Of a stretch of 64,000 nt of DNA, positions 41,533 to 64,000 are shown one piece after another (position 1 is the stretch's first letter; every line of letters begins with the position of its first letter). The stretch comes from Pseudomonadota bacterium. Lineage in GTDB: Bacteria > Pseudomonadota > Gammaproteobacteria > Burkholderiales > SG8-39. The stretch is from assembly GCA_021811085.1 (NCBI GenBank), contig JAJZPQ010000006.1, positions 4,914 through 68,913 of the forward strand, in the 5' to 3' direction. Under the pieces are notes generated by a model, which made no database searches, was not told the DNA's origin, and was given only the letters and a program-made list of their open reading frames with translations. The translations under genes were made by a program, and so were the position numbers.

Positions 41533-41541
41533 GGGATGCGC

Positions 41542-42882: not shown

Positions 42883-42918
42883 TCCCGTATCACCTAATAC
42901 ACATGGAGAACAAGCAAA

Positions 42919-43140
42919 ATGGCGACAGTGGAACTTAAGTCCGAGGTGACCGGAGCGGTCTGGCAGATCAAGAAGCAGCCGGGCGAGGTTGTCGCCGAAG
43001 GGGACATCGTTATGATTTTGGAGTCGATGAAGATGGAGATTCCAGTGATAGCGGAACAAGGGGGCACGCTCAAGGAACTGGTCGTGAAAGAGGGCGAGCC
43101 TGTGGCCGAGGGCCAGACCGTTGCGATCCTCGAAACCTAA
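42919..43140 (+). CDS. minimal biotin carboxyl carrier protein (biotinyl domain only, 73 aa)
   Basis: VMILESMKMEIPV carries the MKM biotinylation motif, with the Lys codon at 43030-43032. There is no N-terminal or linker region. Confidence 0.8.
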   Translation: MATVELKSEVTGAVWQIKKQPGEVVAEGDIVMILESMKMEIPVIAEQGGTLKELVVKEGEPVAEGQTVAILET

Positions 43141-43188
43141 CCCGGTATATCGGCGCTGTTTCATATCCAACTCTTCAAGGGTAATTAA

Positions 43189-45935: not shown

Positions 45936-45955
45936 CTGCAGCGAGCTGTAGTTAG

Positions 45956-45997
45956 AAAGGCGGGTTCGCCAGAGTCCGCCTTTCGTGGCTTTTTTTC
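45956..45997 (+). terminator. intra-operon hairpin / partial terminator after the binding-protein gene
   Basis: AAAGGCGG-(12 nt)-CCGCCTTT gives an 8-bp stem. A T7 run follows at 45990-45997, displaced by 6 nt. Confidence 0.4.
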
Positions 45998-46026
45998 AGC
46001 CGCGAGCCTTATAGAGGAGTGTGGAG

Positions 46027-49892: not shown

Positions 49893-51902
49893 CTATTCGG
49901 GTAGGACGGAGACCGCCCGGATCTCGGCCATGGTTCCCGGCGCGGCGTTCAGTACGGCCAGCCCGCGTGGGCCGATGTGTAGCGCAGTGCCATTGTCCTG
50001 TAAGCAGGCCCAACCTCGAAGGGCAGAGGCCGACGTGCTGGCCACCAGTTCGACCAGTGCACCATTGGCTACACCGAGTCGGGCGGCGAACTCACCGGAA
50101 AATTCGAAGCGCCGGCGCGGGCCGTCGTACACGTCGGTCTCAGCTTGCTCAAGCAAGATGCGGACGCGGTCTTTTCTCAGCTGCTCGCGCTCGGCGGTTG
50201 TACCCTCAGCATCCGCACGTCCCTCTTGACTCAGCACAACCCCAAAGCGGCGCCGCGCGTGCTCCGCCGTGAGGTAGCCGAGCGCGACGTCCGACTCTAC
50301 TCTGCCGACATCGCGTAGCAGAGGGTCGCCGTAGCCCCCGCCCCCTGCGGTCTCGATCCGCACGATGTCTCCCTGCTGAAGTGCGAACCCACCGACCTTC
50401 CCGGGAATGGGGGATGGGTCGATTACCATTCCGTCGCGTAAGACGATGAACCGGTTGCCTGCGCCGCTTTTGGCGGTCGCCGTGCCGAACGGCGGAATAA
50501 CACACTTGTCGGCAAGGACCGAAAGGCTTGCGTTTTTGCTTAGAATGCGCAGGTCACGCCGAATTCCGCAGCCGCCGCGGAACTCGCCGTCGCCGCATGA
50601 CCCTTCCCGGATGCCGTACTGCACCACTTCCACGGGACATTGGGATTCCACTACCTCGACCGCCCACACGGCGTTGAAATCGCCTTCGGAATAGGCGCGT
50701 ACGCCATGGTTTCCGTCGAACCCGCGCGTCGCTCCGGTCCCGCCTGCCGGATACTCGTACATGAGGAAAAGGCTGCTGTCCTCGAGCAGACCAGAGAGGT
50801 ATACATGATTGGCGCCGCCTTTCAGGTCGCCAACGCGCTTATTGGGCAGCGCGAGCCCGAGGGCGGAGACTACGAGTGAAGAGAGCAGTGCCCGGCATTC
50901 GACCATTCCGCCGCAAGGGGCGGGTAGTGTCGCGTTAAGAAAGCTTCCGGCCGGATTGACTATTTCCAGGGAATTGAAGGAGCCGTGATTGACTGGCGTG
51001 TAGGGGTCAAGGAATGCCTTGACCATGGTCGCCACCGCGTTGAACGCCATTGCGGGGCCGACATTAATCGGCCCCCTGGTTTGCGGGGAGGATCCGGTGA
51101 AGTCAGCAATCAGCCGATCGCCCGTTACAGTCATCTTAAGCCGTCCAACCAAGGGATCCGGGCTATGGCCGTCGCTGTCCATGTAGCCCTCGGCATAATA
51201 GGTGCCGTCAGGCACCTCTGCGATGCGTTGGCGCATGACCCGCTCAGCGCGAGCGATGAGTTCATCGATCCCTGAGAGTAGTTTTTCGCCGCCAAAGCGC
51301 CGAAAAAGCCGCCGCAGGTGCTCCGCTGCCTTACGCGAAGTCCCGAGCATCGTGTTGAAATCGCCCTTACGCTCGTGGGGGATGCGCATATTCGCGAACA
51401 GCAGGTCAAGAAATGCCTCGTTCATCCGGCCGCTCTCACAGATGCGAGTCGGAACGATCCGTAGTCCCTCTTGATAGATTTCTTTCACCCGGCCGGAAAG
51501 GCTGCCGGGAGTCATGCCTCCCACGTCGCCCCAGTGGCACCGGACCGCGGTAAAAAGCGCCAAGCGTCCCTCGAGAAACACAGGGTAAAGCATCAGCACA
51601 TCGTTCAGGTGTGTGCCACCCGTGTAGGGATCGTTGTGCAGGAAGATGTCGCCTTCGTTGATATCGTTGCCAAAGCGTTTCACGACTTCGGCGGTCGAAT
51701 AGGGAACGGCGAAGATATGAAGCGGATTATCGTCCAGACTTTGCGCGACCAGCCTGCCGTCTGCAGCAACCAGCCCACAAGAGAAGTCGTGGCCCTCGTA
51801 GATGATTGACGAATACGAACTATGGATTACGTTCGCGCGCATCTCGTTGACAACCGCCACGAGCGACTCGCGGATTAGTTCAAGACGTCCTAGTTCGTTC
51901 AT
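49893..51902 (-). CDS. hyuB: hydantoinase/oxoprolinase family protein, B (HyuB-type) subunit
   Basis: LIRESLVAVVNEMRANVIHSSYSSIIYEGHDFSCGL..NDPYTGGTHLNDV. Length is 669 aa. Confidence 0.9.
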   Translation of the reverse strand: MNELGRLELIRESLVAVVNEMRANVIHSSYSSIIYEGHDFSCGLVAADGRLVAQSLDDNPLHIFAVPYSTAEVVKRFGNDINEGDIFLHNDPYTGGTHLNDVLMLYPVFLEGRLALFTAVRCHWGDVGGMTPGSLSGRVKEIYQEGLRIVPTRICESGRMNEAFLDLLFANMRIPHERKGDFNTMLGTSRKAAEHLRRLFRRFGGEKLLSGIDELIARAERVMRQRIAEVPDGTYYAEGYMDSDGHSPDPLVGRLKMTVTGDRLIADFTGSSPQTRGPINVGPAMAFNAVATMVKAFLDPYTPVNHGSFNSLEIVNPAGSFLNATLPAPCGGMVECRALLSSLVVSALGLALPNKRVGDLKGGANHVYLSGLLEDSSLFLMYEYPAGGTGATRGFDGNHGVRAYSEGDFNAVWAVEVVESQCPVEVVQYGIREGSCGDGEFRGGCGIRRDLRILSKNASLSVLADKCVIPPFGTATAKSGAGNRFIVLRDGMVIDPSPIPGKVGGFALQQGDIVRIETAGGGGYGDPLLRDVGRVESDVALGYLTAEHARRRFGVVLSQEGRADAEGTTAEREQLRKDRVRILLEQAETDVYDGPRRRFEFSGEFAARLGVANGALVELVASTSASALRGWACLQDNGTALHIGPRGLAVLNAAPGTMAEIRAVSVLPE

Positions 51903-51953: not shown

Positions 51954-53291
51954 TCAGAGTCGGGTCACCTTGCCAGCATCGATCAAGTCCTTTACCGCGC
52001 CCGCAAACGCTTCTAGCGTCGGGTCAATATCAGCGTCCGTGTGGGCGAGCGAAGTGACTCCGCCGGTGTACGACATAAAATCGACGCCGCGCTTGCGAAG
52101 GCCGCAGGTATAGACATCGAGCGCGTCGCGCTTCATCGAGCGAATCGCGTCGGGGGGAACCTGGTCGATAATGGAGCGTCGGGCATGCTGCCCAAAGTAG
52201 ACGTGGAAGGTTGAAGCTTCGCCATAAACGATGGCATCGACTTGCAGTTGGTCTAGCACCCGTTGCATGCCGGCACGCAGCTGGGCAGCAATGCGGTTTG
52301 CCTGACGGTGGGGCTCACCGGTGCGGATAACTTTAAGGGCCGCCACCGCGGCAGCCGATACTATGGGGCTCGCGTTAAACGTGCCGCGGTGGATGATGGG
52401 TGGCTTGAATCCTTCGATCTCTTGCCTCGGGTCTAGCAGCCGCATAATCTCAGCGCTGCCACCGATCGCGCCGCCGGGCATGCCGCCGGCCACAATCTTC
52501 GCCATGGTCGTCATGTCAGGCTTGATACCGAGCAATGCCTGCTTGCCACCAGGACTCCAGCGGAACCCCGTGATTACCTCGTCGAAGATCAGGACGCAGT
52601 CGTAGCGGTCGCAGAGTGTGCGCAAGGCTCTCAGGAGCTCGTCGGCGATGGGAACGCTGCCCCAGTTAGCGCCTGACACCTCGCAGATCACGGTGCCGAT
52701 CTGTCGATCGGCCTTGAGCCTACTTTCGACCTGATGCGCGTCGGTCGGGCACACCACCATAGTTTCCCGTATGCAATCAGGAACACCCAGCGTGGGAATC
52801 CGGTCGTACGGTGTCTTCATACCTTGGACGACGTAGTCGTGCCAGCCGTGGAAGTGGCCCTCGAAACGCAGGACCTTCGGGCGCTTCGAGTAGGCGCGCG
52901 CGACGCGAAGTGCGAGCATCGTTGCCTCGGTTCCGGACGCGACGAAGCGCACGCGCTCGGCTGAGGGCACGAGTTCCTGTACCAGTTCAGCCCATTGAAT
53001 TTCGAGCGGGTGGACCGTCGCGAAGAACGTGCCCTCGCTCGCCTGTGACACGAGTGCCGCAACAACGTCTGGATGTGAATGGCCGAGCATCATCGCGGCG
53101 CTTCCCATTGCGTAGTCGATGTACTCGCGTCCCTCGACGTCCCATTTCCGCGCGCCTCGGGCGCGGCTGAAATAGGCGGGATACGGTGGTAAGAAGCGCC
53201 CGTCGTGCGAGACACCGCCTGCGAGGGAGATCTGTGCGCGCTCCCAGAGCTCCCTAGACGAAAGGCTCCTCACGTCCACGTTTGCGTTCAT
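51954..53291 (-). CDS. class III (omega-type) aminotransferase, glutamate-1-semialdehyde aminomutase-like
   Basis: GREYIDYAMGSAAMMLGHSHP..ASGTEATMLALRVAR..FDEVITGFR..TMAKIVAGGMPGG (PLP Lys). I chose the ATG at 53291, which has a GGAG RBS. Confidence 0.85.
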   Translation of the reverse strand: MNANVDVRSLSSRELWERAQISLAGGVSHDGRFLPPYPAYFSRARGARKWDVEGREYIDYAMGSAAMMLGHSHPDVVAALVSQASEGTFFATVHPLEIQWAELVQELVPSAERVRFVASGTEATMLALRVARAYSKRPKVLRFEGHFHGWHDYVVQGMKTPYDRIPTLGVPDCIRETMVVCPTDAHQVESRLKADRQIGTVICEVSGANWGSVPIADELLRALRTLCDRYDCVLIFDEVITGFRWSPGGKQALLGIKPDMTTMAKIVAGGMPGGAIGGSAEIMRLLDPRQEIEGFKPPIIHRGTFNASPIVSAAAVAALKVIRTGEPHRQANRIAAQLRAGMQRVLDQLQVDAIVYGEASTFHVYFGQHARRSIIDQVPPDAIRSMKRDALDVYTCGLRKRGVDFMSYTGGVTSLAHTDADIDPTLEAFAGAVKDLIDAGKVTRL

Positions 53292-53417
53292 CCCAGTTCT
53301 CCTTGACAATAAACAAGTACGTGGTTTTGGCTGGTTTGCAGGAATGTCGACATTTATGCAGAGTGCCACAACTTTGTGGAACAGGCAATTGCAGAAGCGA
53401 AAATGGGAGGAGACTCA

Positions 53418-54220: not shown

Positions 54221-54955
54221 TCACTTCTTCGCAGGGACCGACGTCGTGCGATTCACGCGAGCTAAGGAGGTGCGCTCGCTGCGCTCGCGGCGTTCTAGCT
54301 CGGCGAGAGCGGCGACAAGATTTTGTGTGGACAGGCGGCGGTGCAAAGTCTCGGCCAGTTCGGCATCGCGTGCGGCAATTGCCCGAAGTAGGCGCGCCCA
54401 ATTCGCGAGCGACTGCTTACGGCGTTGGGGTTGGCTCAGTCCCAATCGGGTGTATCTTCCAATGCGCAACGCAAAATCGGCGATATAGTCCGTAAGCTGT
54501 TGATTTCCGCTTAGGTGTGTGAACACGGCGACGAGGTCTGCGCTCGCTCTTGCATAGGCGGCGGCATCGTTCTTCGCTGCCTGCAGCTTGCTGTACCCTG
54601 CGTAAAGCGTGCGCTTTACCTCGGGCGAATAGTTGAGCGCAACTCTGCGAGATACAAGCCCGAGCAAGACCGCTCGTATTTCAAACAGATCCTCCAATTC
54701 TCGGCGCGACAGTTTCGTCACCTGAGCGCCGCGCTGCGGGACAATGGATACAAGATTGCGCTGTTCGAGGATCCGGAGCGCCTCGCGGACCGTGGCGCGA
54801 CTCACCCCAAAACTTTTCGCGAAGACAACTTCCTTCAGGCGTTCTGCCGGGCGCAGCTTCTCCTCAATGATCAATGCGCCGATGCGTTCTGCAATCTGCA
54901 AAGGTAGTGTTCGCGTTATTGGGGACGCGGTTAGGGACGTATCCATAGTACCCAT
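54221..54955 (-). CDS. GntR family (FadR/FCD-type) transcriptional regulator
   Basis: LKEVVFAKSFGVSRATVREALRILEQRNLVSIVPQRGAQV forms the wHTH, followed by an FCD-like domain. The gene is divergent from the 55048 operon. Confidence 0.85.
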   Translation of the reverse strand: MGTMDTSLTASPITRTLPLQIAERIGALIIEEKLRPAERLKEVVFAKSFGVSRATVREALRILEQRNLVSIVPQRGAQVTKLSRRELEDLFEIRAVLLGLVSRRVALNYSPEVKRTLYAGYSKLQAAKNDAAAYARASADLVAVFTHLSGNQQLTDYIADFALRIGRYTRLGLSQPQRRKQSLANWARLLRAIAARDAELAETLHRRLSTQNLVAALAELERRERSERTSLARVNRTTSVPAKK

Positions 54956-55047: not shown

Positions 55048-56745
55048 ATGTCCAGCATGTCTGGAGGAAAGGCCGTCGTCGAGTCGCTTCGGGCCGAAGG
55101 CGTAAAGGACGTATTCGGACTCATCGGATCTGCGGGAATGGAGATCTTCGATGCGCTCTACGATGCTCGCGACATTCGATTCATTGGGGTTCGCAACGAA
55201 TGCACTGGCACCCATATGGCAGACGGTTATGCGCGGGCCTCAGGCCGCGCCGGGGTGATTATCGCCGGGCAGAACGGTCCGGGAGCGACGAATCTAGTCA
55301 CTGGCCTGGCGCAGGCATACGCGGCCTTTTCGCCGGTGGTGGCCCTAGCCGGGTCGCTGTCCTCAGCGCATATCTATCGCGATGCTTTCCAGGAGGTCGA
55401 TCAGCAGGCGCTGTTTCGGCCGATCACCAAGAAGACCTGGACTGCTACGCAGTCGGCAAGGCTTCCTGAAATGATGCGAGAGGCGTTCCGCACGGCGCTG
55501 ACACCGCGTTGCGGACCAGTCGCGTTGAACCTTCCGCGGGATCTTCTTGCTGAGGTGGTTGAGATTGCCGAGATCTTTGGTCCGAGCGGGCGCGAAGCCA
55601 TGGGCCGCTCGGCAGGCGATTGGGAGTTGATCGAGCAAGCGGCGCAGCTGTTAGCTGGTGCGAAGAAGCCGCTTATTATCGCTGGGGGCGGGATTAAGAA
55701 CGGGCGGTATCACCGCGAGTTGCTGGCGCTCGCGGAGTTGCTGAAGGCACCTGTCGCTTTGTCGCCCGGGCACGGCGATGCGTTGCCCTGTACCCATGAA
55801 CTGTATGCTGGCCAAGTAGGCCCGCGGGGCAATGCCGTCGCTTCGGCGCTTGCGCTCGAGGCCGACGTCATTCTTGCCATCGGTACACGGCTCGGTTTCA
55901 ACACTACGTTCTACTCTTGGGACAACCTGAATCGATCGGCGAAGATAATTCAGGTGGACATTGAGCCCACTGCCGTGGGTCGATTCTTCCCGGTCGAGAT
56001 CGGAATCGAAGGTGACGCCGGCCGCGTGGCGGTCGCACTGACCCGGGCGCTATCGAGCCACAAGGCCACGGCTTCTGTCGAGTGGACGAAAACCTTCATG
56101 GCAAAGCGCAAGGTTCTTCTCGCCGAGCGGGAGGCGACTGCGGCGGAGGCGGGCGGGTCTCCTATCCAACCGGCCGCGCTCTTCGCGGCGTTACGAGTCG
56201 CGCTCCCAGATGACACGATGTTCACCGTGGATGCAGGGACGCTATGCCTGCAGGCAACTGACCAGATGCTCTATCGTCACCCGCCCGCGCTGTTTTCCCC
56301 GCTTGACTTTGGGCTGGTTGGTTTCTCCTACGCGGCCGGGCTCGGGATAAAGATCGCCTGCCCGGAACGCACGGTGGTCAGTCTGATGGGCGACGGCGGC
56401 TTCGGCATGACACTTGGCGAGATCGGCACGGCTGTCTCTAATGGCATCAACACAGTCTGCATTGTAATGAACAACGGCTGCTGGGGCGCTGAGAAGTCCT
56501 ATCAGAAGGACTTTTTCGGCGAGCGCTACATCGGCGCCGACGTGCCCAATCCGCCCTACGATAAGGTCGCCGAACTCTATGGTGCGAAGGGTTACCGCGT
56601 CGAGCGAACCGAACAAATAGCGCCTATGGTTCGCGCGGCCGTGGAGTGTGGCAAGCCAGCTATTGTGGACATCCAGGTTGACCCCGCCGCGCTCTACAGC
56701 TTTCGCCGGGATTCCTTTAAGCACAGGGACAAGGCAGCCAAGTGA
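55048..56745 (+). CDS. thiamine-diphosphate-dependent enzyme (acetolactate synthase large-subunit-like family)
   Basis: N-terminal Pyr domain (GVRNECTGTHMADGYARASGR). C-terminal TPP motif GDGGFGMTLGEIGTAVSNGINTVCIVMNNG (GDG-X-NN). Confidence 0.85.
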   Translation: MSSMSGGKAVVESLRAEGVKDVFGLIGSAGMEIFDALYDARDIRFIGVRNECTGTHMADGYARASGRAGVIIAGQNGPGATNLVTGLAQAYAAFSPVVALAGSLSSAHIYRDAFQEVDQQALFRPITKKTWTATQSARLPEMMREAFRTALTPRCGPVALNLPRDLLAEVVEIAEIFGPSGREAMGRSAGDWELIEQAAQLLAGAKKPLIIAGGGIKNGRYHRELLALAELLKAPVALSPGHGDALPCTHELYAGQVGPRGNAVASALALEADVILAIGTRLGFNTTFYSWDNLNRSAKIIQVDIEPTAVGRFFPVEIGIEGDAGRVAVALTRALSSHKATASVEWTKTFMAKRKVLLAEREATAAEAGGSPIQPAALFAALRVALPDDTMFTVDAGTLCLQATDQMLYRHPPALFSPLDFGLVGFSYAAGLGIKIACPERTVVSLMGDGGFGMTLGEIGTAVSNGINTVCIVMNNGCWGAEKSYQKDFFGERYIGADVPNPPYDKVAELYGAKGYRVERTEQIAPMVRAAVECGKPAIVDIQVDPAALYSFRRDSFKHRDKAAK

Positions 56746-58367
56746 ACGAATCGATTTTTGACTACGTGGTCATTGGTTCCGGGTCTGCCGGTGCGGCTCT
56801 CGCAGCCCGGCTTACGGAGAGCGGTCGGCACCGCGTCCTAGTTCTTGAGGCGGGCGGCGAAGGCCGCAACATTTGGATTCACGTCCCACTAGGTGTCGGA
56901 AAGCTGCTGAACAACGAGCGGTATGTATGGAAATTTCAGACGGAACCTCAGGCGACTTTGCATGGGCAAAGCATCTACTCACCGCGCGGCAAGGTACTTG
57001 GGGGGTCGAGTGCGCTAAATGGCATGGCCTATGTTTGGGGCGATCCGACGGAATTTGATAGCTGGCGCGAGAAAGGTTGCCGGGGATGGGGCTTCTCCGA
57101 CGTGCTGCCCTACTTCCGGCGGATGGAGGCCAACCTCTTTAGTAAGCAGGTCGGGCGCGGTCGGGAAGGGCCGATGCGCATTACGGACCGTGCGGTCCGC
57201 GATCCTGATGCCCTATCGGATGCCTTTGTACGCTCCTGCGGCGAGGCTGGAATTCCGCCGACGGCCGACTACAATGTGGGTTCCTATGAAGGAGTACGCT
57301 ACCTCGAGCAGACGGCCTTTAACGGGCGCCGCTGGAGCACGGCAGTAGCCTACCTTGGGGCGGCGCGTCGCCGGCAGAACCTCACCATCGAGACCCTCGC
57401 GCAGGTCTGCCGTGTGGTATTCGAAGGAACCCGTGCCGTTGGCGTCGAATACGTGAAGCACGGCGAGAAGCGCACGGTGCGCGCGGCTCGCGAAGTTCTG
57501 CTTTGCGCTGGTGCGATCCAATCGCCGCAATTACTGGAGCTTTCTGGCATAGGGGATGCGGCACGGCTGCAGCAGCTCGGAATTCCGGTCGTCGCTCATA
57601 GTCCAAACGTCGGCGAGAACATGATTGATCACCTGCAGGTACGGTGCACGTACCAGACAACCTTGCCAATCACCATCAATGACATCATGCGAAGCGCTTG
57701 GCACCGCATGCGCGTGGGCCTGCAGTATCTCGCATATCGCAAGGGTCTATTAGCGGGAACGTCATCCACCGCTCATGCGATTACCCGGTCCAGCGCGTCG
57801 CTTTCGCGTCCGGACGTGATGGTGCGAATCTATCACATCAGCGGCAAGGACAGGTACTCACGCTCGCCAGGCCAGGGTATCGATCCGTTCTCGGGTTTCT
57901 CGATCGGTGGATTCAAGCTCTATCCGGAGTCGCGTGGCTTCTGCCACATCGACTCGCCTGACCCGCTAGTACATCCACGCATACAGCCGAATTATCTGGT
58001 GAGCGAGGGCGACCAAAATACCGCGGTAGCGCTCCTGCGTCTGATCCGGAACATCGCCGCGCAGCCCTCCCTGAGCGAACTGATCGTTAAGGAGCATCGA
58101 CCTGGTCCTGCGACAACTGAAGACGCGGCGTTGCTGGAATACATACGCGAATCGGGCCAGACGGCATGGCACACAGTCGGAACCTGCGCTATGGGAGGCG
58201 CGCCCGATTCCGTCGTCGACGAGCGACTCCGAGTGCGCGGCGTTGAGGGTCTGCGAGTTATTGACATTTCCGTTATGCCCACTATTGCCTCATCCAACAC
58301 TAACGCGCCCGCCATCATGATTGGTGAAAAAGGCGCCGATCTGGTCGCCGCAGACGCGCGTGTCTGA
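56742..58367 (+). CDS. GMC family FAD-dependent oxidoreductase (choline dehydrogenase-like)
   Basis: FDYVVIGSGSAGAALAARL forms the GxGxxG FAD fold, with the GMC signature GGSSALNGMAY and a C-terminal active-site region (HTVGTCAMG). Overlaps the upstream stop (GTGA). Confidence 0.9.
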   Translation: MNESIFDYVVIGSGSAGAALAARLTESGRHRVLVLEAGGEGRNIWIHVPLGVGKLLNNERYVWKFQTEPQATLHGQSIYSPRGKVLGGSSALNGMAYVWGDPTEFDSWREKGCRGWGFSDVLPYFRRMEANLFSKQVGRGREGPMRITDRAVRDPDALSDAFVRSCGEAGIPPTADYNVGSYEGVRYLEQTAFNGRRWSTAVAYLGAARRRQNLTIETLAQVCRVVFEGTRAVGVEYVKHGEKRTVRAAREVLLCAGAIQSPQLLELSGIGDAARLQQLGIPVVAHSPNVGENMIDHLQVRCTYQTTLPITINDIMRSAWHRMRVGLQYLAYRKGLLAGTSSTAHAITRSSASLSRPDVMVRIYHISGKDRYSRSPGQGIDPFSGFSIGGFKLYPESRGFCHIDSPDPLVHPRIQPNYLVSEGDQNTAVALLRLIRNIAAQPSLSELIVKEHRPGPATTEDAALLEYIRESGQTAWHTVGTCAMGGAPDSVVDERLRVRGVEGLRVIDISVMPTIASSNTNAPAIMIGEKGADLVAADARV

Positions 58368-58381
58368 AGTCCGGAGGACAT

Positions 58382-58789
58382 ATGCCGAAAAAGAAGCAAC
58401 CGAAGACCCCTCATACCGATGCACAGAGAAAAACCGGGGACTGGAATCCACTGTGGAACACATTCGCCGAATGGGATCCCGAGTTCCTTGAGGCCTATCT
58501 GCGCCTACGGAACGTGCCGATTGAAAACGGGCCGCTTCCGAAGAAAATCAAGGAGTTAATTCTGGTGGCGATCAATGCAGCCACCACTCACTTGTATGCG
58601 CCCGGGGTGCGCCGGCATATTCGTAATGCGCTGCAGCATGGCGCAACTCGGGAAGAGATTCTGGAGGCGATCGAGCTGACGACGGTGTTAGGTATCCATT
58701 CGAGCAACATTGCAATTCCGATTCTCGCCGAAGAGCTCGCCGAAAGGGCTAAAAAAGGGCCCGCAAAAAAAAGACTTGGAAAGATATAG
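58382..58789 (+). CDS. carboxymuconolactone decarboxylase (AhpD-like) family protein
   Basis: 135 aa. WDPEFLEAYLRLRNVPIENGPLPKKIKELILVAINAATTHLY is typical of the CMD domain. Confidence 0.75.
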   Translation: MPKKKQPKTPHTDAQRKTGDWNPLWNTFAEWDPEFLEAYLRLRNVPIENGPLPKKIKELILVAINAATTHLYAPGVRRHIRNALQHGATREEILEAIELTTVLGIHSSNIAIPILAEELAERAKKGPAKKRLGKI

Positions 58790-58847: not shown

Positions 58848-60197
58848 ATGACGCCCATAACGCGCGAGATTGCTACGTTGATTGCCTCGACCCAGTTCGA
58901 AGACATTCCGAACGATGTCGCCGAGTACAGCAAGACGCTCGCCATGAGCGCCCTCGGCGCGATGATCTCCGGTCCCGCCTGTTTAGGTTCAGACATTGTC
59001 ACGCGCTACGTGCGCCGCGCCGGCGGTGCGGCCGAAGCAACGGTACTCGGTGGGGGATTCAAAACGTCGATCGAGGGAGCGGCGCTGGCGAACGCCACTT
59101 ACGCCCATGCCACGGAATACGAAGACGATAGCTTTCCGGAGGCAGTGTCCAGTTATACTATTTTTCCGGCGATCTTCGCGCTCGGCGAACACCTGCGCTC
59201 GGATGGCCGCAGCACGCTGGAGGCATTCGTGCTCGGTTACGAGACCCAAGCGCGTATCGGTCTTGCCTGCCGCGAGGCGAGACGCCTAGGCTACATGGTT
59301 CTTACTCTGGCCGGGTCCATCGGATGCGCGGCGGCAGGAGCTAAGCTTCTCAAGCTAGATGAGCGCAGAACAGCAAACGCGCTCAGCATCGCCGCCTCTC
59401 AAGGAAGTGGGTTAGGTTATCAGACGGGGTCGATGTCACACATCGTCGAGATGGGGTTCGCCGCACGTAATGGATTGACCGCAGCATTACTCGCGGCAGA
59501 TGGCTTCACGGGGCAGCCGGACATCTTGGAGGCGCCCAGAGGGCTGTTCAACATCATCACCGGGGGCAAGGTGGAAAATGTCGACGGGATCCTCGCCGAC
59601 TGGGGCCGGTCTTATCGGGTGCTAGAGGTCGGAATCAAGCAGTATCCCTGCTGCTACCACCTCCAGCGGATCATCGAATCGACTGTGGCATTGCGCGATG
59701 CTGGTAGGTTGGCTCCAGATAATGTCGAGGAAATCCAGGTGGAGGTGAACGCCTTCTTCCCGACGGTCGTGCAGCATCCGGAGCCCCGCGATGAGATCCA
59801 GGCGCAGTTCAGCCTGCCGCACGCGATAGCGTCTGCGCTGCTCGAGCCGCGTGTGCTGCCCTCCAGCTTTTCTAAGGCGAAGATCGATGCGCCCGCATTC
59901 GAGCAGCTTCGGCGCAAAGTGAAGATGGTGGTACGGGAGGACTGGGGCTGGACACCCACCGGGTGGACTCCAAGGATAACTTATCGGCTTCGCAGCGGAA
60001 CTGAATTGGTTGAAGAGCCCAAGCTCTGCAAAGGCCAACCGCCTGCGCTGCTATCCTTCGACGAATGCATCGAAAAATACCGAGGATGCGTCGAAAGCGT
60101 GTTACCCGAGCACAAGGTTGCCGACTCAATCGAGACCCTCCGGTCACTCGATGTTTGTGGAAATGTCGACCTACTGATGCGCACAGTCACCCGCTGA
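58848..60197 (+). CDS. MmgE/PrpD family protein (2-methylcitrate dehydratase-like)
   Basis: TREIATLIASTQFEDIPNDVAEYSKTLAMSALGAMISG... Length is 449 aa. The ATG at 58848 is in frame inside the track ORF 58710..60197. Confidence 0.85.
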   Translation: MTPITREIATLIASTQFEDIPNDVAEYSKTLAMSALGAMISGPACLGSDIVTRYVRRAGGAAEATVLGGGFKTSIEGAALANATYAHATEYEDDSFPEAVSSYTIFPAIFALGEHLRSDGRSTLEAFVLGYETQARIGLACREARRLGYMVLTLAGSIGCAAAGAKLLKLDERRTANALSIAASQGSGLGYQTGSMSHIVEMGFAARNGLTAALLAADGFTGQPDILEAPRGLFNIITGGKVENVDGILADWGRSYRVLEVGIKQYPCCYHLQRIIESTVALRDAGRLAPDNVEEIQVEVNAFFPTVVQHPEPRDEIQAQFSLPHAIASALLEPRVLPSSFSKAKIDAPAFEQLRRKVKMVVREDWGWTPTGWTPRITYRLRSGTELVEEPKLCKGQPPALLSFDECIEKYRGCVESVLPEHKVADSIETLRSLDVCGNVDLLMRTVTR

Positions 60198-60210: not shown

Positions 60211-60705
60211 ATGTCCGGATCAACGCCTTTCACGAATGACGATGTCGAGCAAATCCTTCGGGTCGTCGACCGTCTGTCAGACGTCGAGGTCCGCTTCGAG
60301 TTCGGCGATATTAAGCTTCATGTGCGCAAGTCCTCGGCGACTGGAGCGGTTGCGGAAACGCCGATGCCCCCGAGGCCGCCTGCGCAAGTGCAGCGTCCGC
60401 AGCCGCCCGCCTCGCAATCTGCACCGAGATCTTCTTCCGGCAAGGAAGTCCCGTTGCCGCCCGGTACTGTCGCAATCCGCGCGCCGATGCTCGGTACATT
60501 CTATCGGTCGCCTTCGCCCACCGAGCCGCCGTTCGTCGAGGTCGGAAAGCGGGTTGCGGCTGACGACCCTGTCTGCCTCATCGAAATAATGAAGTTGTTC
60601 AATACCGTGAACGCAGGAGTCGACGGTGTCATCCTAGCGATGGCCGTAGAGAACGGGACGATGGTCGAGACCAACGACATCCTTTTCCTGGTGAAGATTG
60701 ACTAG
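60211..60705 (+). CDS. AccB-type biotin carboxyl carrier protein
   Basis: N-terminal domain, Pro/Ala-rich linker, then IRAPMLGTFYRSPSPTEPPFVEVGKRVAADDPVCLIEIMKLFN. The biotinyl-Lys codon is at 60592-60594. The architecture matches E. coli AccB. Confidence 0.85.
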   Translation: MSGSTPFTNDDVEQILRVVDRLSDVEVRFEFGDIKLHVRKSSATGAVAETPMPPRPPAQVQRPQPPASQSAPRSSSGKEVPLPPGTVAIRAPMLGTFYRSPSPTEPPFVEVGKRVAADDPVCLIEIMKLFNTVNAGVDGVILAMAVENGTMVETNDILFLVKID

Positions 60706-62196
60706 ATGGGCAACCAGCCTAGCGTCTGGCCGAATTCCGATCGCAGCGTCGAGATCATCGATACGACGCTGCGGGATGCGCAACAATGCCTGTGGACTAC
60801 CCGGATGACGGCGGCAATGATGACGCCGATCGCGGACATGATGGAGCAGGCCGGGTTCGCGATGATCGACTTCATGGCGCCCGTGCAGTTCGACGTCTGC
60901 GTTCGCTATCTTAGGGAAAATCCCTGGGAGAAGGCTCGTTTTTTTCGCGAGAAATTCCGCACCACGCCGCTGCGCGGTTACTGCCGCAGCAAAAGCCTTG
61001 TCGGCTTCAGCATGGTTCCGGACGATATCGTCGAGTTGTGGATCGAACGGCTAAATGCCAACGGTTTTCGCGTTGTCGGCACGCTTGATGCGCTATTCGA
61101 CGTCGAGAACATGCTCGTGAGCGTGCGCCACGCCAAGCGGCTAGGGATGTATTCGGTCGGTGCCTTGGTTTTTTGCGACAGCCCTGTTCATACCGACGAG
61201 GTTTATGCACGCACCGCTCGCGAGCTGATTGAGCGCGGCGGTGTTGACTCGATTATGATTAAAGACTCGGGCGCGCTGCTCACCCTCGATCGCATTCGAA
61301 CGCTCGTGCCGGCACTACGGGAAGTCATGGGAGGGCGGCCGATCGAGTTGCATAGCCACTGCAATACCGGACTTGCACCCCTCGTTTACCTGGAAGCAGC
61401 CAGACTCGGCGTGCAGCGGCTCCATACCTCGATCGCGCCCTTGGCAAGCGGCCCGGCGCAGCCCGCGACGCAGTTGATGCTGCACAATCTGCAGGTCAGC
61501 GGGTTTAGAACCAACGTGAACCGCGATCGCGTCAATTCTATCAGCGAATATCTGACGGATCTCGCCGCGCGCGAAGGCTTTCCCGTCGGCGAGCCGATGG
61601 AGTACGACGCCTTCCACTACCGGCATCAGATGCCTGGCGGGATGCTGGCCAACTGGAGGTATCAGCTACGCCAATCCGGAATCGAGGATCGTTTCGACGA
61701 AATCCTCGAAGAGATTGCCCGGATCCGCCCGGAGCTTGGCTGGCCGATTATGGTCACACCATTCTCCCAGATTATTGCGGTGCAGGCGATGCTGAACGTC
61801 GTCGGTGGTGAGCGCTACCGTAGCGTGCCCGACGAAGTCAAGATGTACGCGCTGGGGCACTTCGGCAAGCTGCTCGCACCAGTGGATCCCGACGTACTGG
61901 ACCGGATCGTTGAAAACGGGTCGCCGAGGATCCCGCTCCGCCCGCAACCGCTCGCGCCCGCGGCGGTTGAGCTGCGCAGGGCCTATCCGGATGCGGACGA
62001 CGACGAGCGCTTACTACGTTACATGTTCGCAGGCAACGAGGTGGACAACATGCTGGCGGCGGGACCCCTGAAGGTTTCGGTGCCCGGCGCCAGCCCGGTG
62101 GCGCGGCTGATCGAAGCCCTTGCCGAGCGACCGGCGGTGAAATATCTGGAAGTCGAGAGAAAAGGCGCGCGCTTGGTCTACTCAAAGGCCGCGTAA
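60706..62196 (+). CDS. pyruvate carboxylase subunit B / oxaloacetate decarboxylase alpha-like carboxyltransferase without a biotinyl domain
   Basis: HMGL-like TIM-barrel start VEIIDTTLRDAQQC, then IMIKDSGAL and ELHSHCNTGLA (HxH), followed by a PYC_OADA-like region. The protein is 496 aa and ends without a biotin-lipoyl domain. Confidence 0.8.
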   Translation: MGNQPSVWPNSDRSVEIIDTTLRDAQQCLWTTRMTAAMMTPIADMMEQAGFAMIDFMAPVQFDVCVRYLRENPWEKARFFREKFRTTPLRGYCRSKSLVGFSMVPDDIVELWIERLNANGFRVVGTLDALFDVENMLVSVRHAKRLGMYSVGALVFCDSPVHTDEVYARTARELIERGGVDSIMIKDSGALLTLDRIRTLVPALREVMGGRPIELHSHCNTGLAPLVYLEAARLGVQRLHTSIAPLASGPAQPATQLMLHNLQVSGFRTNVNRDRVNSISEYLTDLAAREGFPVGEPMEYDAFHYRHQMPGGMLANWRYQLRQSGIEDRFDEILEEIARIRPELGWPIMVTPFSQIIAVQAMLNVVGGERYRSVPDEVKMYALGHFGKLLAPVDPDVLDRIVENGSPRIPLRPQPLAPAAVELRRAYPDADDDERLLRYMFAGNEVDNMLAAGPLKVSVPGASPVARLIEALAERPAVKYLEVERKGARLVYSKAA

Positions 62197-62255: not shown

Positions 62256-63257
62256 ATGCAGCGAATCAAGCGAATGAAAGCAGTACTTGTGCTTGCGACC
62301 CTGTTGTCTTGGTCGTTCGGCACGCAGGCTATCGCCCAGAGCATTACGCTCAAGCTGGCACATGGCGCGACGCCGGCCATGGCGGTTGGCAAGGGAATGA
62401 TCCGGTTCGCCGAGCTGGTCAATTCAAAATCCAAAGGTAGCGTAAAAGTTGACTTGTTCCTTTCCGGCTCGCTGTACAACGAGCGCACCTCGCTCGAGGC
62501 AATAGTGAACGGCGCGATCGACTTAGGCGGCGCGTCCAACGCCAACTGGGCGGCGTTCACGGACGCGCTGCTCTTTATGGATCTGCCATATGTATTTAAT
62601 GATGAAGAATCATTCAGCAAGGCGATGCAAGGCCAGGTAGGTGACGAAATACGCAACCGGTTTGCTAAGGATGGCTTCAAACTCTTAATGATTATGGATA
62701 ACGCCGGGTTCCGCGACGTGGTGAACACGAAGCGCGAAGTGCGAGTACCAAGTGACATTAAGGGGCTGAAGATGCGCACGACTGCTTCACCGGTTGAGAT
62801 CGCGATGATGCGCAACTGGGGCGCCGTGACTACCGCGGTTGACTGGGGCGAGGTCTACAATGCCCTTGGCTCCGGGGTCGTGGACGGCGAGTTCGTGCAG
62901 CCCATATGGCTCGCGTTCGCCAAGCATTTCGAGGTGCTTAAGTATGCGACCGAGGTTAAAGCGGTAATAGGTATCAACACGCTTGCCATGCGCAAGGACC
63001 GGTTCGAAAAGCTGCCGGTGTCGGCGCAGAAGGTTATCCTCGACGCAGCCGCCGAGGCTCAGGCGTATTCGAACAAAATCGACGCTGAACAGATGCAGGA
63101 TGGCATCGCGATCGGCCGCAAGCTCGGAGTTAAATTCTACAAACCAACCCCTGAGGAAATGAAGATCTGGCAGTCGACGGGTCGGGCCATCTGGAAGGAC
63201 TTTGACAGCAAAATTGACAAGGCACTGCTAAAAACGGTCCTCGACGCGCAAAAATAA
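62256..63257 (+). CDS. dctP: TRAP transporter substrate-binding protein (DctP family)
   Basis: Signal peptide MQRIKRMKAVLVLATLLSWSFGTQAIA. DctP-like core (LKLAHG, MRTTASPV). An AGGAGGA RBS is present. Confidence 0.85.
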   Translation: MQRIKRMKAVLVLATLLSWSFGTQAIAQSITLKLAHGATPAMAVGKGMIRFAELVNSKSKGSVKVDLFLSGSLYNERTSLEAIVNGAIDLGGASNANWAAFTDALLFMDLPYVFNDEESFSKAMQGQVGDEIRNRFAKDGFKLLMIMDNAGFRDVVNTKREVRVPSDIKGLKMRTTASPVEIAMMRNWGAVTTAVDWGEVYNALGSGVVDGEFVQPIWLAFAKHFEVLKYATEVKAVIGINTLAMRKDRFEKLPVSAQKVILDAAAEAQAYSNKIDAEQMQDGIAIGRKLGVKFYKPTPEEMKIWQSTGRAIWKDFDSKIDKALLKTVLDAQK

Positions 63258-63326: not shown

Positions 63327-63863
63327 ATGTTGCCAAACGAGAAGTCCAAAGTTGGCCTGGCGTGGTTCGTGCTGGTCCGCATCCCGGAACTCATCCTTGC
63401 GCTGCTGGTGGCGGTGCTTGTCGTGTTCCTATCGCTCGCGGTGCTGGGGCGCTACGTGTTCGACGTCGGGCTCGACTGGTCGGATGAACTCGCACGCATG
63501 CTCTTCGTGTGGGTGGTGTTCCTTGGGTTCGCGGTGGCCATCCGGCATCGCGGCAACATAGGTGTCGAAATGCTCGTGGATCGTTTGTCGCGGCGCAACC
63601 GGCACCGGTTGGTGCTGATGCAAGACATCGTGATACTCGCATTCTCCCTGTTCTTCACCTGGGAGGCCGAGGTGACAGTCCGCTTTTCCTTGATGCAGCG
63701 CCTGCCCGTGCTGCAGATCACGATAGCCTGGATGTACGCGGCAGTGCTTGTCGGCGGGGTAATGATGGTGGGCTATGCGGCGGCAAATCTCTGGGATACG
63801 TTGAGCGGCAGGACGCTTCGCGCCGACGAGCAGGGGCAAGACGCCATCCACCACAGCGAATAG
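63327..63863 (+). CDS. dctQ: TRAP transporter small permease (DctQ family)
   Basis: 178 aa with 4 TM segments. WSDELARMLFVWVVFLG is typical of DctQ. Confidence 0.85.
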   Translation: MLPNEKSKVGLAWFVLVRIPELILALLVAVLVVFLSLAVLGRYVFDVGLDWSDELARMLFVWVVFLGFAVAIRHRGNIGVEMLVDRLSRRNRHRLVLMQDIVILAFSLFFTWEAEVTVRFSLMQRLPVLQITIAWMYAAVLVGGVMMVGYAAANLWDTLSGRTLRADEQGQDAIHHSE

Positions 63864-63872
63864 GACAACCCG

Positions 63873-64000
63873 ATGACACTCGCCATCCTCGTAGTTTCCT
63901 TTGCCGTCCTGGTCGTGCTCGGACTACCGATCGCCTTCGCGATGGCGATATCATCGCTAATCACGGTGCTTTACCAGGGGGGCATCCCTCTCAATGTCAT
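63873..64000 (+). CDS. dctM: TRAP transporter large permease (DctM family), 5' part only
   Basis: Hand translation gives MTLAILVVSFAVLVVLGLPIAFAMAISSLITVLYQGGIPLNV. The gene runs off the window. Confidence 0.8.
   Translation, partial: MTLAILVVSFAVLVVLGLPIAFAMAISSLITVLYQGGIPLNV

Follow-up and report, generated by a model that had tools for sequence, protein, structure and literature searches.

To our knowledge, few substrates are known for biotin-dependent carboxylases with a carboxyltransferase (CT) of the pyruvate carboxylase (PC) type: pyruvate, 2-oxoglutarate and, since 2022, phosphorylated aryl methyl ketones. The latter are the substrates of the acetovanillone/hydroxyacetophenone carboxylases AcvCDE and HpeCBA, which are three-subunit enzymes composed of an AccB-like, an AccC-like and a PycB-like protein, and enzymes of the Acv/Hpe/Xcc type perform an ATP-dependent carboxylation beside a carbonyl group, giving a beta-keto acid (PMC9618137; bioRxiv 10.1101/2022.04.28.489975).

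In the window, i.e. the whole stretch of 64,000 nucleotides that was analysed, an AccB-like carrier and a stand-alone CT are encoded side by side in an apparent operon, the genes of which are as follows:

54221-54955, minus strand: GntR/FCD regulator (Pfam), divergently transcribed; from its position, the probable regulator of the operon
55048-56745, plus strand: ThDP enzyme, first gene of the apparent operon, nearest to sulfoacetaldehyde acetyltransferase but below the cut-off (NF005713, 441.5 bits vs. 620)
56742-58367, plus strand: GMC (choline-dehydrogenase-like) flavoprotein oxidoreductase, co-located with the CT in loci L003, L012 and L013
58382-58789, plus strand: CMD/AhpD-like protein, 135 aa (PF02627)
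58848-60197, plus strand: MmgE/PrpD-family protein, 449 aa (PF03972 and PF19305), 13 bp upstream of the carrier gene
60211-60705, plus strand: AccB-like biotin carboxyl carrier protein, 164 aa, with N-terminal domain, Pro/Ala-rich linker and biotinyl domain
60592-60594, plus strand: codon of the predicted biotinyl lysine K128 (EIMKL), inside the Biotin_lipoyl match
60706-62196, plus strand: stand-alone CT of the PycB/OadA/5S type, 496 aa, without biotinyl domain (PF00682 and PF02436)
62256-63257, plus strand: TRAP solute-binding protein of the DctP family (PF03480)
63327-63863, plus strand: TRAP small membrane subunit DctQ (PF04290)
63873-64000, plus strand: first part of the gene for DctM, the large TRAP membrane subunit, which runs on past the end of the window (L001:13168-14454 in the extended sequence, see below)

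We consider it likely that the carrier and the CT belong to an ATP-dependent biotin carboxylase of three subunits, together with an AccC-type biotin carboxylase (BC) encoded downstream. Gene content, synteny, residue conservation and fold were observed directly; that the carrier is biotinylated, that the BC is the partner, in which direction the reaction runs and what kind of substrate is used are inferred.

The first-pass annotation had described a carrier of AccB architecture, supplied in trans by the gene directly upstream of the CT, and this description holds. The carrier stop codon (TAG) lies at 60703-60705 and the CT ATG directly follows at 60706, both in the list of open reading frames and in the DNA. 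A single Biotin_lipoyl domain (PF00364) was found by Pfam at residues 88-159, with K128 as the lysine that would be biotinylated. The NCBIfam AccB model TIGR00531 spans the whole protein (residues 12-162 vs. model positions 6-155 of 156) with a score of 105.8 bits, below the cut-off of 115.2, so that the architecture of AccB is present and membership of that family is not reached. The genomic partner of this carrier is the PycB-like CT, not accC with accA/accD.

Concerning the CT, both Pfam domains of the superfamily score above their gathering thresholds (HMGL-like PF00682, 45.1 bits vs. 29; PYC_OADA PF02436, 103.5 bits vs. 27), which places the protein among the PC/OAD/5S-type enzymes. Each NCBIfam model for PC, OadA (oxaloacetate decarboxylase alpha) and transcarboxylase 5S, for its part, scores under its own cut-off: 390.4 bits vs. 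402 for the best one, NF006761 (pyruvate carboxylase subunit B), 329.9 vs. 734 and 237.7 vs. 1182 for the other PC subunit B models NF010644 and NF010645, 340.7 vs. 756.5 for the OadA equivalog TIGR01108, and 266.1 vs. 827 for the 5S equivalog NF008984. Sequence matches among PDB entries were 2nx9, 5ks8_C and 1rqb, the OadA entry 2nx9 being the top match among solved structures (8.8e-78). The AlphaFold2 model has a mean pLDDT of 76.9, with a weak part at residues 290-410 (pLDDT 50-70). Foldseek returned 5ks8 as its top match, together with 1rqb and 2nx9 (E-values from 1e-29 to 1e-33, TM 0.77-0.80), and a fold of the PC/OAD/5S type was thereby confirmed for the predicted structure.

As first annotated, this CT ends without a biotinyl domain: no Biotin_lipoyl (PF00364) match was detected in it by Pfam, and the biotinyl motif is present in none of its 120 closest homologues (448-530 aa). 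A missed frameshift past 62196 that would hide such a domain was considered and rejected. The next open reading frame is the DctP gene, which is preceded by an AGGAGG ribosome-binding site and starts at 62256, and there is therefore no room for the domain. The wording that the enzyme had been stripped of it was, on the other hand, misleading, since, in addition to these homologues, most of the nearest full-length clusters at 50% identity (62 of 83) lack the domain, which speaks against a recent loss. Several NCBIfam OadA/PycB models (465-468 positions) have no biotinyl domain, and the same is true of 5S. Judging from these sequences, stand-alone CTs of the PC-type fold are a large old group, and those accompanied by their own AccB- and AccC-like genes make up many deep clades in Pseudomonadota.

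The segments of the CT gene that correspond to the active site of this superfamily are the following:

60760-60789, plus strand: DTTLRDAQQC motif, in which R23, D24 (metal ligand) and Q27 are kept, with Q26 in place of His and C28 in place of Ser
60868-60894, plus strand: DFMAPVQFD segment, found where the canonical enzymes have (E)xWGGATFD; V60 takes the place of Ala59 of 5S
61261-61269, plus strand: K186-D187-S188, with K186 at the position of the carbamylated metal-bridging lysine and S188 in place of Met186 of 5S
61351-61359, plus strand: metal-binding HxH, H216-S-H218, from the alignment
61756-61767, plus strand: T351-P-F-S354, with T351 at the position of Thr882 of Rhizobium etli pyruvate carboxylase

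In an alignment of 18 sequences of the clade, R23, D24, Q26, Q27, C28, R94, K186, D187, S188, H216, H218 and residues T351 to Q355 (the VTPFSQ region, including S354) are invariant. The metal site of the superfamily (D24, K186, H216 and H218) aligns with the canonical residues, so that the KD and HxH elements are indeed kept, as had been claimed. Using the numbering offset from the match to 2qf7, the equivalences with the R. etli enzyme are D24=D549, K186=K718 and H216/H218=H747/H749; the same offset, together with the residue spacing from HxH (133 in both proteins), maps T351 to Thr882, which is essential for catalysis (PMC5895798). The catalytic Thr and the substrate-binding Arg/Gln/Arg triad (R23, Q27 and R94) thus appear to be in place, and the CT is predicted to be an active enzyme by its invariant catalytic residues and its fold. 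A loss of the catalytic Thr had at one point been read from the variable residue in PGGML(A/N/T/E/S)N; this reading was abandoned, as Thr882 maps instead to the invariant T351. The PGGMLxN position is simply less constrained in the clade than in OadA, PC beta and 5S.

The remainder of the pocket differs from the canonical one: RDAQQC (60772-60789), APVQFD, RSKSLVGF (with Phe replacing the canonical Tyr) and KDSGA are found in place of RDAHQS, GGATFD, RGQNLLGY and KDMAG of the canonical PC subunit B, at residues in which OadA, PC beta and 5S are alike. The H-to-Q and S-to-C changes had been noticed from the start; they are fixed in the clade and were not seen in the alignments of OadA, two-subunit PC beta and 5S. 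Among the 120 closest homologues, DTTLRDAQQC occurs in 95 and DTTLRDGQQC in 19, while the DFMAPVQFD segment reads DFMAPVQFDVCVRY in 110. The RDAHQS motif itself turned out to be less strongly conserved than first stated, since its His is not so outside the canonical enzymes; among the nearest uncharacterised clusters, Q is the most frequent residue at this position. Overall, the CT is 32-36% identical to PC beta, OadA and 5S, which share 57-59% with each other. As read from the alignments, the pocket of the clade is remodelled (RDAQQC, APVQFD, KDSGA) with the metal ligands and the catalytic threonine kept. We presume, from mutant work on 5S and PC, that changes at the positions of Ala59 and Met186 of 5S have an effect on the pocket; the titles of PDB entries 1s3h, 1u5j and 3hb9 indicate that those 5S/PC pocket positions had been studied.

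The candidate third subunit was found after the window sequence had been extended by 10 kb on the same contig (L001). A BC of 457 aa is encoded at L001:19414-20787, which would correspond to window positions 70119-71492, starting about 6.1 kb past position 64000 and 7.9 kb downstream of the CT. The statement that there is no adjacent BC is thus correct inside the window and does not hold for the contig. In this genome, seven genes, one of them on the opposite strand, separate the BC from the carrier and the CT. Synteny was analysed in a set of 80 genome loci by tblastn and clustering of open reading frames. In 25 of the 30 orthologous loci, many of them incomplete, a BC is close to the CT, and where the locus reaches about 10 kb to either side, it is missing only in L013 (Modicisalibacter), where neither carrier nor BC was found within 10 kb. 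The genes are in the order BC, carrier, CT in five alphaproteobacterial relatives (L011, L014, L016, L017 and L031), and the orthologue of the BC in L022 passes TIGR00514 (655.5 bits vs. a cut-off of 626.5). In a quick neighbour-joining tree without support values, the L001 BC groups with BCs that adjoin a carrier and a CT. All this suggests that the downstream BC is the partner of the carrier-CT pair. A second carboxylase encoded beside this BC, formed by a PCC-beta/12S-type CT, a carrier of 73 aa and an ADP-forming acyl-CoA synthetase, is probably served by it as well.

As to the recurrence of the carrier and CT beside PrpD and TRAP genes, which had been proposed as a check, a carrier homologue is close to the CT in 26 and a PrpD-like one in 20 of the 30 orthologous loci, and DctP orthologues adjoin the CT in at least 10 loci. 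Orthologues of the ThDP enzyme are close to the CT in L003, L012, L013 and L019. The MmgE/PrpD-family protein is far under the PrpD equivalog cut-offs, its nearest solved relatives being iminodisuccinate epimerase and cis-aconitate decarboxylase, and the top solved relative of DctP is the isethionate-binding IseP (8t9t, 174.6 bits). IseJ of the isethionate gene cluster is, we assume, a GMC enzyme as well. Past the CT, L001 encodes the TRAP subunits DctPQM, another ThDP enzyme, an amidohydrolase_2, a reductase of the PRISE type, a GntR/UTRA regulator and the BC, after which comes a Carboxyl_trans gene. As a whole, the companions of the clade are PrpD-like, amidohydrolase_2 and enone-reductase-like proteins, a PCC-type CT with a small carrier, an ADP-forming CoA ligase and TRAP subunits; the PCC-beta/12S/MmdA-type CT, the 73-aa carrier and the ligase are each present in 12-18 of the 30 loci. 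In alphaproteobacteria, BC, carrier, CT and amidohydrolase form one unit, and acyl-CoA CT, small carrier and ligase another. A DUF1330-like protein of about 100 aa beside amidohydrolase_2 was examined as a core member and set aside, being found in 13 related loci and not in this genome. As previously noted, no OadB/GcdB-type gene was found in the annotated parts of the window, nor in those of the 10 kb beyond or among the called genes of locus L002, and no PEP-utilising, PPDK-like or phosphatase genes were found in the window, L001 or the orthologous loci. A literature search on PrpD/MmgE combined with biotin carboxylase or pyruvate carboxylase subunit B, CT and TRAP returned nothing relevant.

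Stand-alone CTs of related clades have other neighbours. In the clade of about 46% identity, BC, CT and beta-keto-acid cleavage enzyme (BKACE) genes overlap (L046), and a BKACE gene comes after the CT in 45 loci of this clade and in L026 and L028, so that the product in these relatives may be a beta-keto acid. One CT-linked BKACE passes the NCBIfam equivalog for 3-oxoadipate:acetyl-CoA acetyltransferase (459 bits vs. 350), and one may speculate that the BKACE-linked clade converts levulinate to 3-oxoadipate. Sulfite exporters are also found, with BKACEs, beside related CTs. A Burkholderia plasmid has the gene order CT-accB-accC, and genes for carbonic anhydrase and biotin synthesis are nearby; a CT homologue flanked by such genes is 57% identical. 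Related clades have BC-CT or CT-carrier-BC and no acyl-CoA CT. Coupling differs by clade: BKACE with sulfite exporters, carbonic anhydrase with biotin synthesis or, for the present clade, some ten recurrent gene families. The members are labelled in databases as 'pyruvate carboxylase subunit B' or 'oxaloacetate decarboxylase alpha', which is probably wrong for the clade studied here and perhaps for others.

From what is known of the enzyme family, the proposed reaction would begin with carboxylation of biotin on K128 of the carrier by the BC, with MgATP and bicarbonate, after which the carrier would swing over to the CT. There, a divalent metal held by D24, carbamylated K186, H216 and H218 would polarise the substrate carbonyl, R23, Q27 and R94 would assist in substrate binding, and T351 would shuttle a proton as CO2 is added to the carbon beside the carbonyl, with a beta-keto acid as the product. 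The substrate is probably not pyruvate, because the pocket differs from that of OadA, PC beta and 5S, the NCBIfam models stay below their cut-offs and the operon, with its transporter and regulator, looks catabolic; given the intact Arg/Gln/Arg triad of PC, pyruvate or another 2-oxo acid could still be used. More likely it is another anionic oxo compound, imported by the adjacent TRAP transporter or derived from the solute of the latter. It could be an oxo-alkanesulfonate or an oxo-dicarboxylate, in view of the isethionate-type TRAP protein, the ThDP enzyme resembling sulfoacetaldehyde acetyltransferase and the sulfite exporters and BKACEs beside related CTs, the oxo-sulfonates being speculation. 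A more tentative extension is that the clade carboxylates a class of substrate new to biotin enzymes and catalyses the entry step of a so far undescribed catabolic pathway in which one BC charges two carriers, the AccB-type one for the PycB-type CT and the 73-aa one for the propionyl-CoA-carboxylase-type CT. Two successive carboxylations would then take place, one of a free oxo compound and the other of a CoA ester, and the PrpD-like, amidohydrolase_2 and enone-reductase-like enzymes would also be used.

Other readings of the locus were weighed against a three-subunit carboxylase. The first-pass annotation had named, as its alternative to BC sharing, a transcarboxylase or a decarboxylase, of which only the former is retained, as a rather unlikely minority view. 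According to it, a 5S-like CT and a 12S-like acyl-CoA CT would swap CO2 via biotin, with a CoA ester of the (methyl)malonyl type on one side and an oxo acid on the other, and the BC would merely prime or top up the system. The presence in the cluster of a PCC-beta/12S/MmdA-type CT, of a 73-aa carrier resembling 1.3S and of the CoA ligase, with a single BC for two CTs, agrees with this idea, whereas the separate carrier for each CT, a conserved BC phylogenetically tied to the carrier-CT pair, the two gene units of alphaproteobacteria and the related clades devoid of acyl-CoA CT do not. An ordinary anaplerotic PC, with its beta subunit split into CT and carrier, would account for the top NCBIfam match (390 vs. 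a cut-off of 402), the top structural match to the two-subunit PC 5ks8 and the retention of the triad, metal ligands and catalytic Thr; we hold it to be improbable in the face of the changed pocket residues, the low identity to PC beta, OadA and 5S, and an operon with transporter, regulator, PrpD-like, ThDP and GMC enzymes, the whole set co-varying like a catabolic island. A pump-less enzyme of the oxaloacetate decarboxylase type, acting on a beta-keto acid from the neighbouring enzymes, could be argued for from the homology to OadA and from the BC not being immediately adjacent in this genome; it is very unlikely because the BC is conserved with the CT. Furthermore, biotin is not required for the ready decarboxylation of beta-keto acids, the annotated related loci did not show an OadB/GcdB-type gene either, and the carbonic anhydrase and biotin-synthesis genes beside the 57%-identical homologue suggest carboxylation. 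Finally, the proposal that the pair lacks its own BC and relies on the one at 41536-42882 (given earlier as 41542), the sole BC within the window, is scarcely credible: that BC belongs to a separate acyl-CoA carboxylase cluster (CoA-transferase, CT, BC, 73-aa carrier, second CT), is 44% identical to the downstream BC and forms the outgroup of the BC tree, and a dedicated BC beyond the window, which was recognised beforehand as a weakness of the sharing idea, is present and supported by synteny and by that tree.

The three-subunit reading makes the locus less striking than first held, because the split architecture and the missing BC are not real anomalies. Identification of the substrate would nonetheless reveal a carboxylation reaction and a catabolic route that are both new, and cultured hosts of the clade are available for genetics (Bordetella bronchiseptica, Variovorax defluvii, Marivibrio halodurans and Modicisalibacter muralis).

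Compared with known systems, the two-subunit PC (PycA/PycB of Methylobacillus flagellatus, 5ks8) has a separate BC as well and agrees in CT fold, metal ligands and catalytic Thr; the C-terminal part of the present CT aligns with the region after the CT domain of the PC beta subunit. PycB, however, has its own C-terminal biotinyl domain, a part played here by a third polypeptide, the carrier, which has an N-terminal domain of the AccB type; the pocket residues also differ, and the identity is about 35%. Transcarboxylase 5S (Propionibacterium, 1rqb) likewise has no biotinyl domain and works with a separate small carrier and a 12S-type acyl-CoA CT, as in the conserved cluster here with its 12S-like CT and 73-aa carrier. 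Transcarboxylase has no BC, whereas one is conserved with the CT here, and the 5S pocket is canonical (RDAHQS, GGATYD, KDMAA). OadA (2nx9) has a canonical pocket too, needs the OadB membrane pump and comes without BC, unlike the present CT; some OadA NCBIfam models (465-468 positions) are, like this CT, too short for a carrier domain. We know of only one other named PC-type CT acting on a 2-oxo acid other than pyruvate, that of 2-oxoglutarate carboxylase CfiAB (Hydrogenobacter thermophilus), whose CT subunit presumably carries a biotinyl domain.

The subunit plan is that of AcvCDE (Sphingobium sp. SYK-6), HpeCBA (Rhodococcus rhodochrous GD02) and XccABC (Aromatoleum aromaticum EbN1), namely an AccB-like carrier of about 17 kDa, an AccC-like BC and a PycB-like CT without biotinyl domain. 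The combination of an AccB-type carrier with a PycB-type CT, which had seemed odd, therefore has a precedent in AcvCDE and HpeCBA. All three parts are encoded together; here the BC is 7.9 kb away, and in five relatives it adjoins the other two genes. Outside the clade, the closest annotated relative (38-39% identity) is the CT of a plasmid locus, L083, called hpe-like by its gene content alone and standing in here for HpeB, AcvE and XccC; it groups with the stand-alone CTs in a neighbour-joining tree without support values. Its motifs are RDGPQS and LEDAAG vs. RDAQQC and IKDSGA here, and it has the partner kinase (phenylphosphate-synthase/CreHI-like) and phosphatase genes of Acv/Hpe/Xcc, none of which occur at this locus. 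The gene neighbourhood, non-aromatic, is wholly unlike that of L083 and Acv/Hpe/Xcc. The split three-part design was thus already known; what is new is a clade with its own active-site signature and a conserved neighbourhood.

The AccB-like biotin carboxyl carrier protein and the PycB/OadA-like carboxyltransferase (CT) encoded side by side in the window probably belong, together with a biotin carboxylase (BC), to a three-subunit ATP-dependent carboxylase of the Acv/Hpe architectural type, from an uncharacterised clade with a remodelled pocket, acting on an oxo substrate that is probably not pyruvate and within a conserved multi-gene pathway. Both genes lie in a run of nine on one strand, separated by gaps of 0–69 bp, which suggests a single operon, with a GntR/FCD regulator gene transcribed divergently. 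The nine genes, all on the same strand, are:

55048–56745, ThDP enzyme
56742–58367, GMC oxidoreductase
58382–58789, CMD-like protein
58848–60197, PrpD-like protein
60211–60705, AccB-like carrier, 164 aa
60706–62196, CT, 496 aa
62256–63257, DctP (TRAP binding protein)
then DctQ and DctM

The ORF list and the DNA agree with the first-pass annotation on the carrier and CT coordinates and on the carrier stop (TAG) directly abutting the CT start (ATG); DTTLRDAQQC is at 60760–60789. The carrier has one Biotin_lipoyl domain only, with K128 as the lysine of EIMKL, and aligns end to end with TIGR00531 (AccB) at 105.8 bits, slightly under the cut-off of 115.2. As for the CT, its domains are HMGL-like and PYC_OADA, with no others. 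A biotinyl domain hidden by a missed frameshift is ruled out, since DctP, preceded by a good ribosome-binding site, begins at 62256 and leaves no space. The CT had been described as stripped of this domain; its absence is confirmed, and a recent loss is not, as no biotinyl motif was found in the best 120 CT homologues (448–530 aa) or in 62 of 83 full-length proteins representing the nearest 50%-identity clusters. The length of several NCBIfam models for OadA and PycB is likewise only 465–468 positions. By these comparisons, the CT is not a stripped protein.

The CT was aligned against OadA (2nx9), the two-subunit PC beta (5ks8) and 5S (1rqb). R23, D24, Q27, R94, K186, H216 and H218 are kept and are invariant across the PrpD-linked clade to which the CT belongs, as is T351 (VTPFSQ). 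By residue spacing, T351 matches Thr882 of Rhizobium etli PC; replacing that Thr by Ala (T882A) inactivates the enzyme (PMC5895798). The variable position of PGGMLxN was considered as the catalytic Thr and rejected, Thr882 mapping to T351. This motif reads PGGMLAN in the CT (residues 311–317, 61636–61656); ahead of Asn, OadA, PC beta, 5S and the more distant clades at 46–59% identity have Thr or Ser, and in the PrpD-linked clade this residue varies (Ala 59, Asn 22, Thr 11, Glu 6, Ser 3; n = 120). At the following sites the three canonical enzymes agree with each other and the clade differs:

RDAHQS to RDAQQC
WGGATFD to MAPVQFD, V60 replacing 5S Ala59
RGQNLLGY to RSKSLVGF, Phe replacing Tyr
KDMAG to KDSGA, S188 replacing 5S Met186
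HxHxxT to HSHCN

Concerning RDAQQC, both changes noticed at first reading are real, the exceptional status given to them being overstated. Among the loci compared, H-to-Q is confined to the PrpD-linked clade and S-to-C also occurs in the 46–59% clades (RDA[H/P]QC); among wider uncharacterised homologues the His position is variable, with Q the commonest residue, and a final Cys is rare (about 7 of 83 cluster representatives). Judged from the alignment, the motif marks a remodelled pocket in a catalytic site that appears otherwise competent.

That no dedicated BC exists, as the window alone had suggested, is contradicted by the next 10 kb of the contig (locus L001). After DctM come a second ThDP enzyme, a 69-aa ORF, an amidohydrolase_2, a PRISE-type (progesterone-5-beta-reductase/iridoid-synthase-like) reductase on the other strand, a GntR/UTRA regulator, a BC of 457 aa (L001:19414–20787) and a Carboxyl_trans gene. 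From the CT stop to the BC start is 7.9 kb, which puts the BC about 6.1 kb beyond the window end; a dedicated BC there is what the first-pass annotation had named as weakening its BC-sharing idea. A total of 80 genome loci with CT relatives was collected and 25 probe proteins were mapped onto them; all ORFs were then clustered for the 30 loci, many of them incomplete, with CT orthologues at 54–100% identity.

Occurrence of gene families in the 30 loci with CT orthologues
AccB-like carrier: 26
BC: 25
Amidohydrolase_2: 21
PrpD-like: 20
PRISE reductase: 19
Acyl-CoA-type CT: 18
73-aa carrier: 18
GntR/UTRA regulator: 17
ADP-forming acyl-CoA synthetase: 12–14

The CT of the cluster's second carboxylase is nearest to propionyl-CoA carboxylase beta, the 12S subunit and MmdA. 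This carboxylase has the 73-aa carrier and an ADP-forming CoA ligase and no BC of its own, so that a single BC probably works for both carrier/CT pairs. Also conserved is a protein of about 100 aa that matches DUF1330 weakly (L015:11493–11789, L022:11466–11792 and 11 other loci). Betaproteobacterial loci encode it between CT and amidohydrolase_2, some alphaproteobacterial ones on the opposite strand; the window's genome lacks it.

Four other readings were weighed. A transcarboxylase has a parallel in 5S, likewise without a biotinyl domain, and is unlikely beside a BC that recurs with carrier and CT. Less probable again is a split pyruvate carboxylase: an AlphaFold2 model of the CT (mean pLDDT 76.9, weak at residues 290–410) matches 5ks8, as well as 1rqb and 2nx9; on the other side, two of the replaced residues, 5S Ala59 and Met186, are the sites of the A59T and M186I mutant structures (1s3h, 1u5j) and also of A610T in S. 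aureus PC (3hb9). Those mutations reportedly impair pyruvate handling. The match to OadA would also suit a decarboxylase without a pump, a very improbable reading given the same recurring BC. Finally, borrowing of the BC at 41536–42882, which does lie in the window, is close to negligible: this BC is an outgroup in a BC neighbour-joining tree, is only 44% identical to the L001 BC and sits in a cluster of its own, so that with a downstream BC present borrowing is both unneeded and unsupported. The same tree places the L001 BC with the BCs adjoining carrier and CT in five alphaproteobacterial loci (L011, L014, L016, L017, L031), where the order is BC, carrier, CT, amidohydrolase_2; BCs from more distant CT clades fall outside this group. 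The initial observation stands and its interpretation is supported in part; the three-subunit carboxylase with its downstream BC is the most likely reading.

The BC at 41536–42882 belongs to a self-contained acyl-CoA carboxylase-like cluster (38608–44751):

CoA-transferase family III, within 38608–44751
39940–41532, Carboxyl_trans
41536–42882, BC
42919–43140, 73-aa carrier
43189–44751, second Carboxyl_trans

Its two CT paralogues are only about 34% identical and score far under every NCBIfam cut-off. In L025, a CT, small carrier and CT set 69–73% identical to the window's adjoins a BC-carrier-BC-CT set. A third Carboxyl_trans-type ORF (120–1712, 530 aa), 42–52% identical to the CT at 43189–44751, gives two overlapping tblastn pieces (528–1448 and 1374–1664).

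Concerning the substrate, the ThDP enzyme at 55048–56745 is nearest to sulfoacetaldehyde acetyltransferase (441.5 bits, under the cut-off of 620). Polaromonas (L012), Modicisalibacter (L013) and L003 likewise have ThDP and GMC genes next to the CT, and Caldimonas (L019) has the ThDP enzyme there. The best solved relative of the TRAP binding protein is the isethionate-binding IseP (8t9t; 174.6 bits, the next reaching 129.7). Equivalents of IseP Arg156, Arg177, Ser95, Asn98 and Trp200 are kept and those of Tyr153, Asn217 and His244 are missing; the roles of these ligand-site residues are described in PMC11668362, and both arginines and two of the three residues of the reported sulfonate-specific site are conserved. 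Upstream of its PrpD-like gene, L004 has a TauE gene; L013 has a TauE fragment that adjoins the ThDP and GMC genes. The IseP-like protein with the ThDP and GMC enzymes makes an organosulfonate possible, and these neighbours, TauE included, hint at a sulfonate or a hydroxy/oxo-acid.

In L013 (Modicisalibacter muralis; CT at 9890–11464, 72% identical), ThDP, GMC, GntR/FCD and TRAP genes are neighbours and transposase genes also lie near the CT. Carrier, BC and PrpD-like gene were not found within 10 kb of it; either its partner genes are located in another part of the genome or this locus is in decay.

Two further groups of window genes were recorded:

44925–47686, ABC transporter with an SsuA/NMT1-like binding protein of aliphatic-sulfonate type, below cut-off
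47807–49876, minus strand, HydA of a caprolactamase-like ATP-dependent lactamase
49893–51902, minus strand, HydB
51954–53369, minus strand, class-III aminotransferase nearest to glutamate-1-semialdehyde aminomutase

HydA, HydB and the aminotransferase are all under equivalog cut-offs. In L010 the trio is immediately upstream of the genes for the PrpD-like protein, the carrier and the CT, and in L003 and L019 aminotransferase orthologues border the cluster; this arrangement suggests that the carboxylase pathway is linked to a lactam or amino-acid route.

As for the related clades, the one at 46%, found in Pseudolabrys and Xanthobacteraceae genomes, has a BKACE gene in 45 loci (it is also present in L026 and L028). 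In L046 (8641–12270) and 44 other loci of this clade, overlapping BC, CT and BKACE genes come with an AccB-like carrier and a divergent IclR regulator. At 459 bits, the BKACE of L046 is above the cut-off (350) of the NCBIfam equivalog for 3-oxoadipate:acetyl-CoA acetyltransferase. An arrangement of this sort suggests that a biotin-dependent carboxylation yields 3-oxoadipate or a sulfonate analogue, e.g. from levulinate; no enzyme of this type is known to have been described. A TauE sulfite exporter and an SsuA/NMT1-type ABC transporter, similar to that of the window, are frequent neighbours of 46%-clade CTs, L046 included. On a Burkholderia sp. THE68 plasmid (L084:4070–20851), accB and accC come after a CT gene whose product is 57% identical, near carbonic anhydrase, bioA-like, bioF, bioD and bioB genes, an acetate symporter and an acetoacetate-decarboxylase-like gene; the region resembles a plasmid-borne module for carboxylation, complete with its own cofactor supply. 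Such contexts fit an ATP-dependent carboxylation of ketones to beta-keto acids that are processed further. The apparent anomalies dissolve; the window clade with its neighbourhood offers a concrete lead, open to testing, towards a new carboxylation reaction.

In a rough NJ tree, the stand-alone CTs (the window clade, two clades at 54–59%, the one at about 46% and an hpe-like CT) stand apart from OadA, PC beta and 5S, which share 57–59% identity with each other and only 32–36% with the window CT. The hpe-like CT, 38–39% identical to the window's, comes from a Rhodococcus pyridinivorans plasmid cluster with hpe gene content (PEP-utilising/PPDK-like kinase genes, carrier, BC, CT, thiolase, phosphatase). 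In AcvCDE of Sphingobium sp. SYK-6, AcvC is AccB-like, AcvD is AccC-like and AcvE shares 26% identity with PycB (bioRxiv 10.1101/2022.04.28.489975). HpeCBA of Rhodococcus rhodochrous GD02 has been purified, with about 0.7 biotin bound to each HpeC, and each carboxylation of 4-phospho-acetovanillone or 4-phospho-acetophenone costs it one ATP (PMC9618137); XccABC of Aromatoleum aromaticum is a homologue according to both papers. Since AcvCDE and HpeCBA share the subunit plan of the window system, its split architecture is of an already known kind, and their conversion of ketones to beta-keto acids is the same chemistry as that proposed for the related clades.
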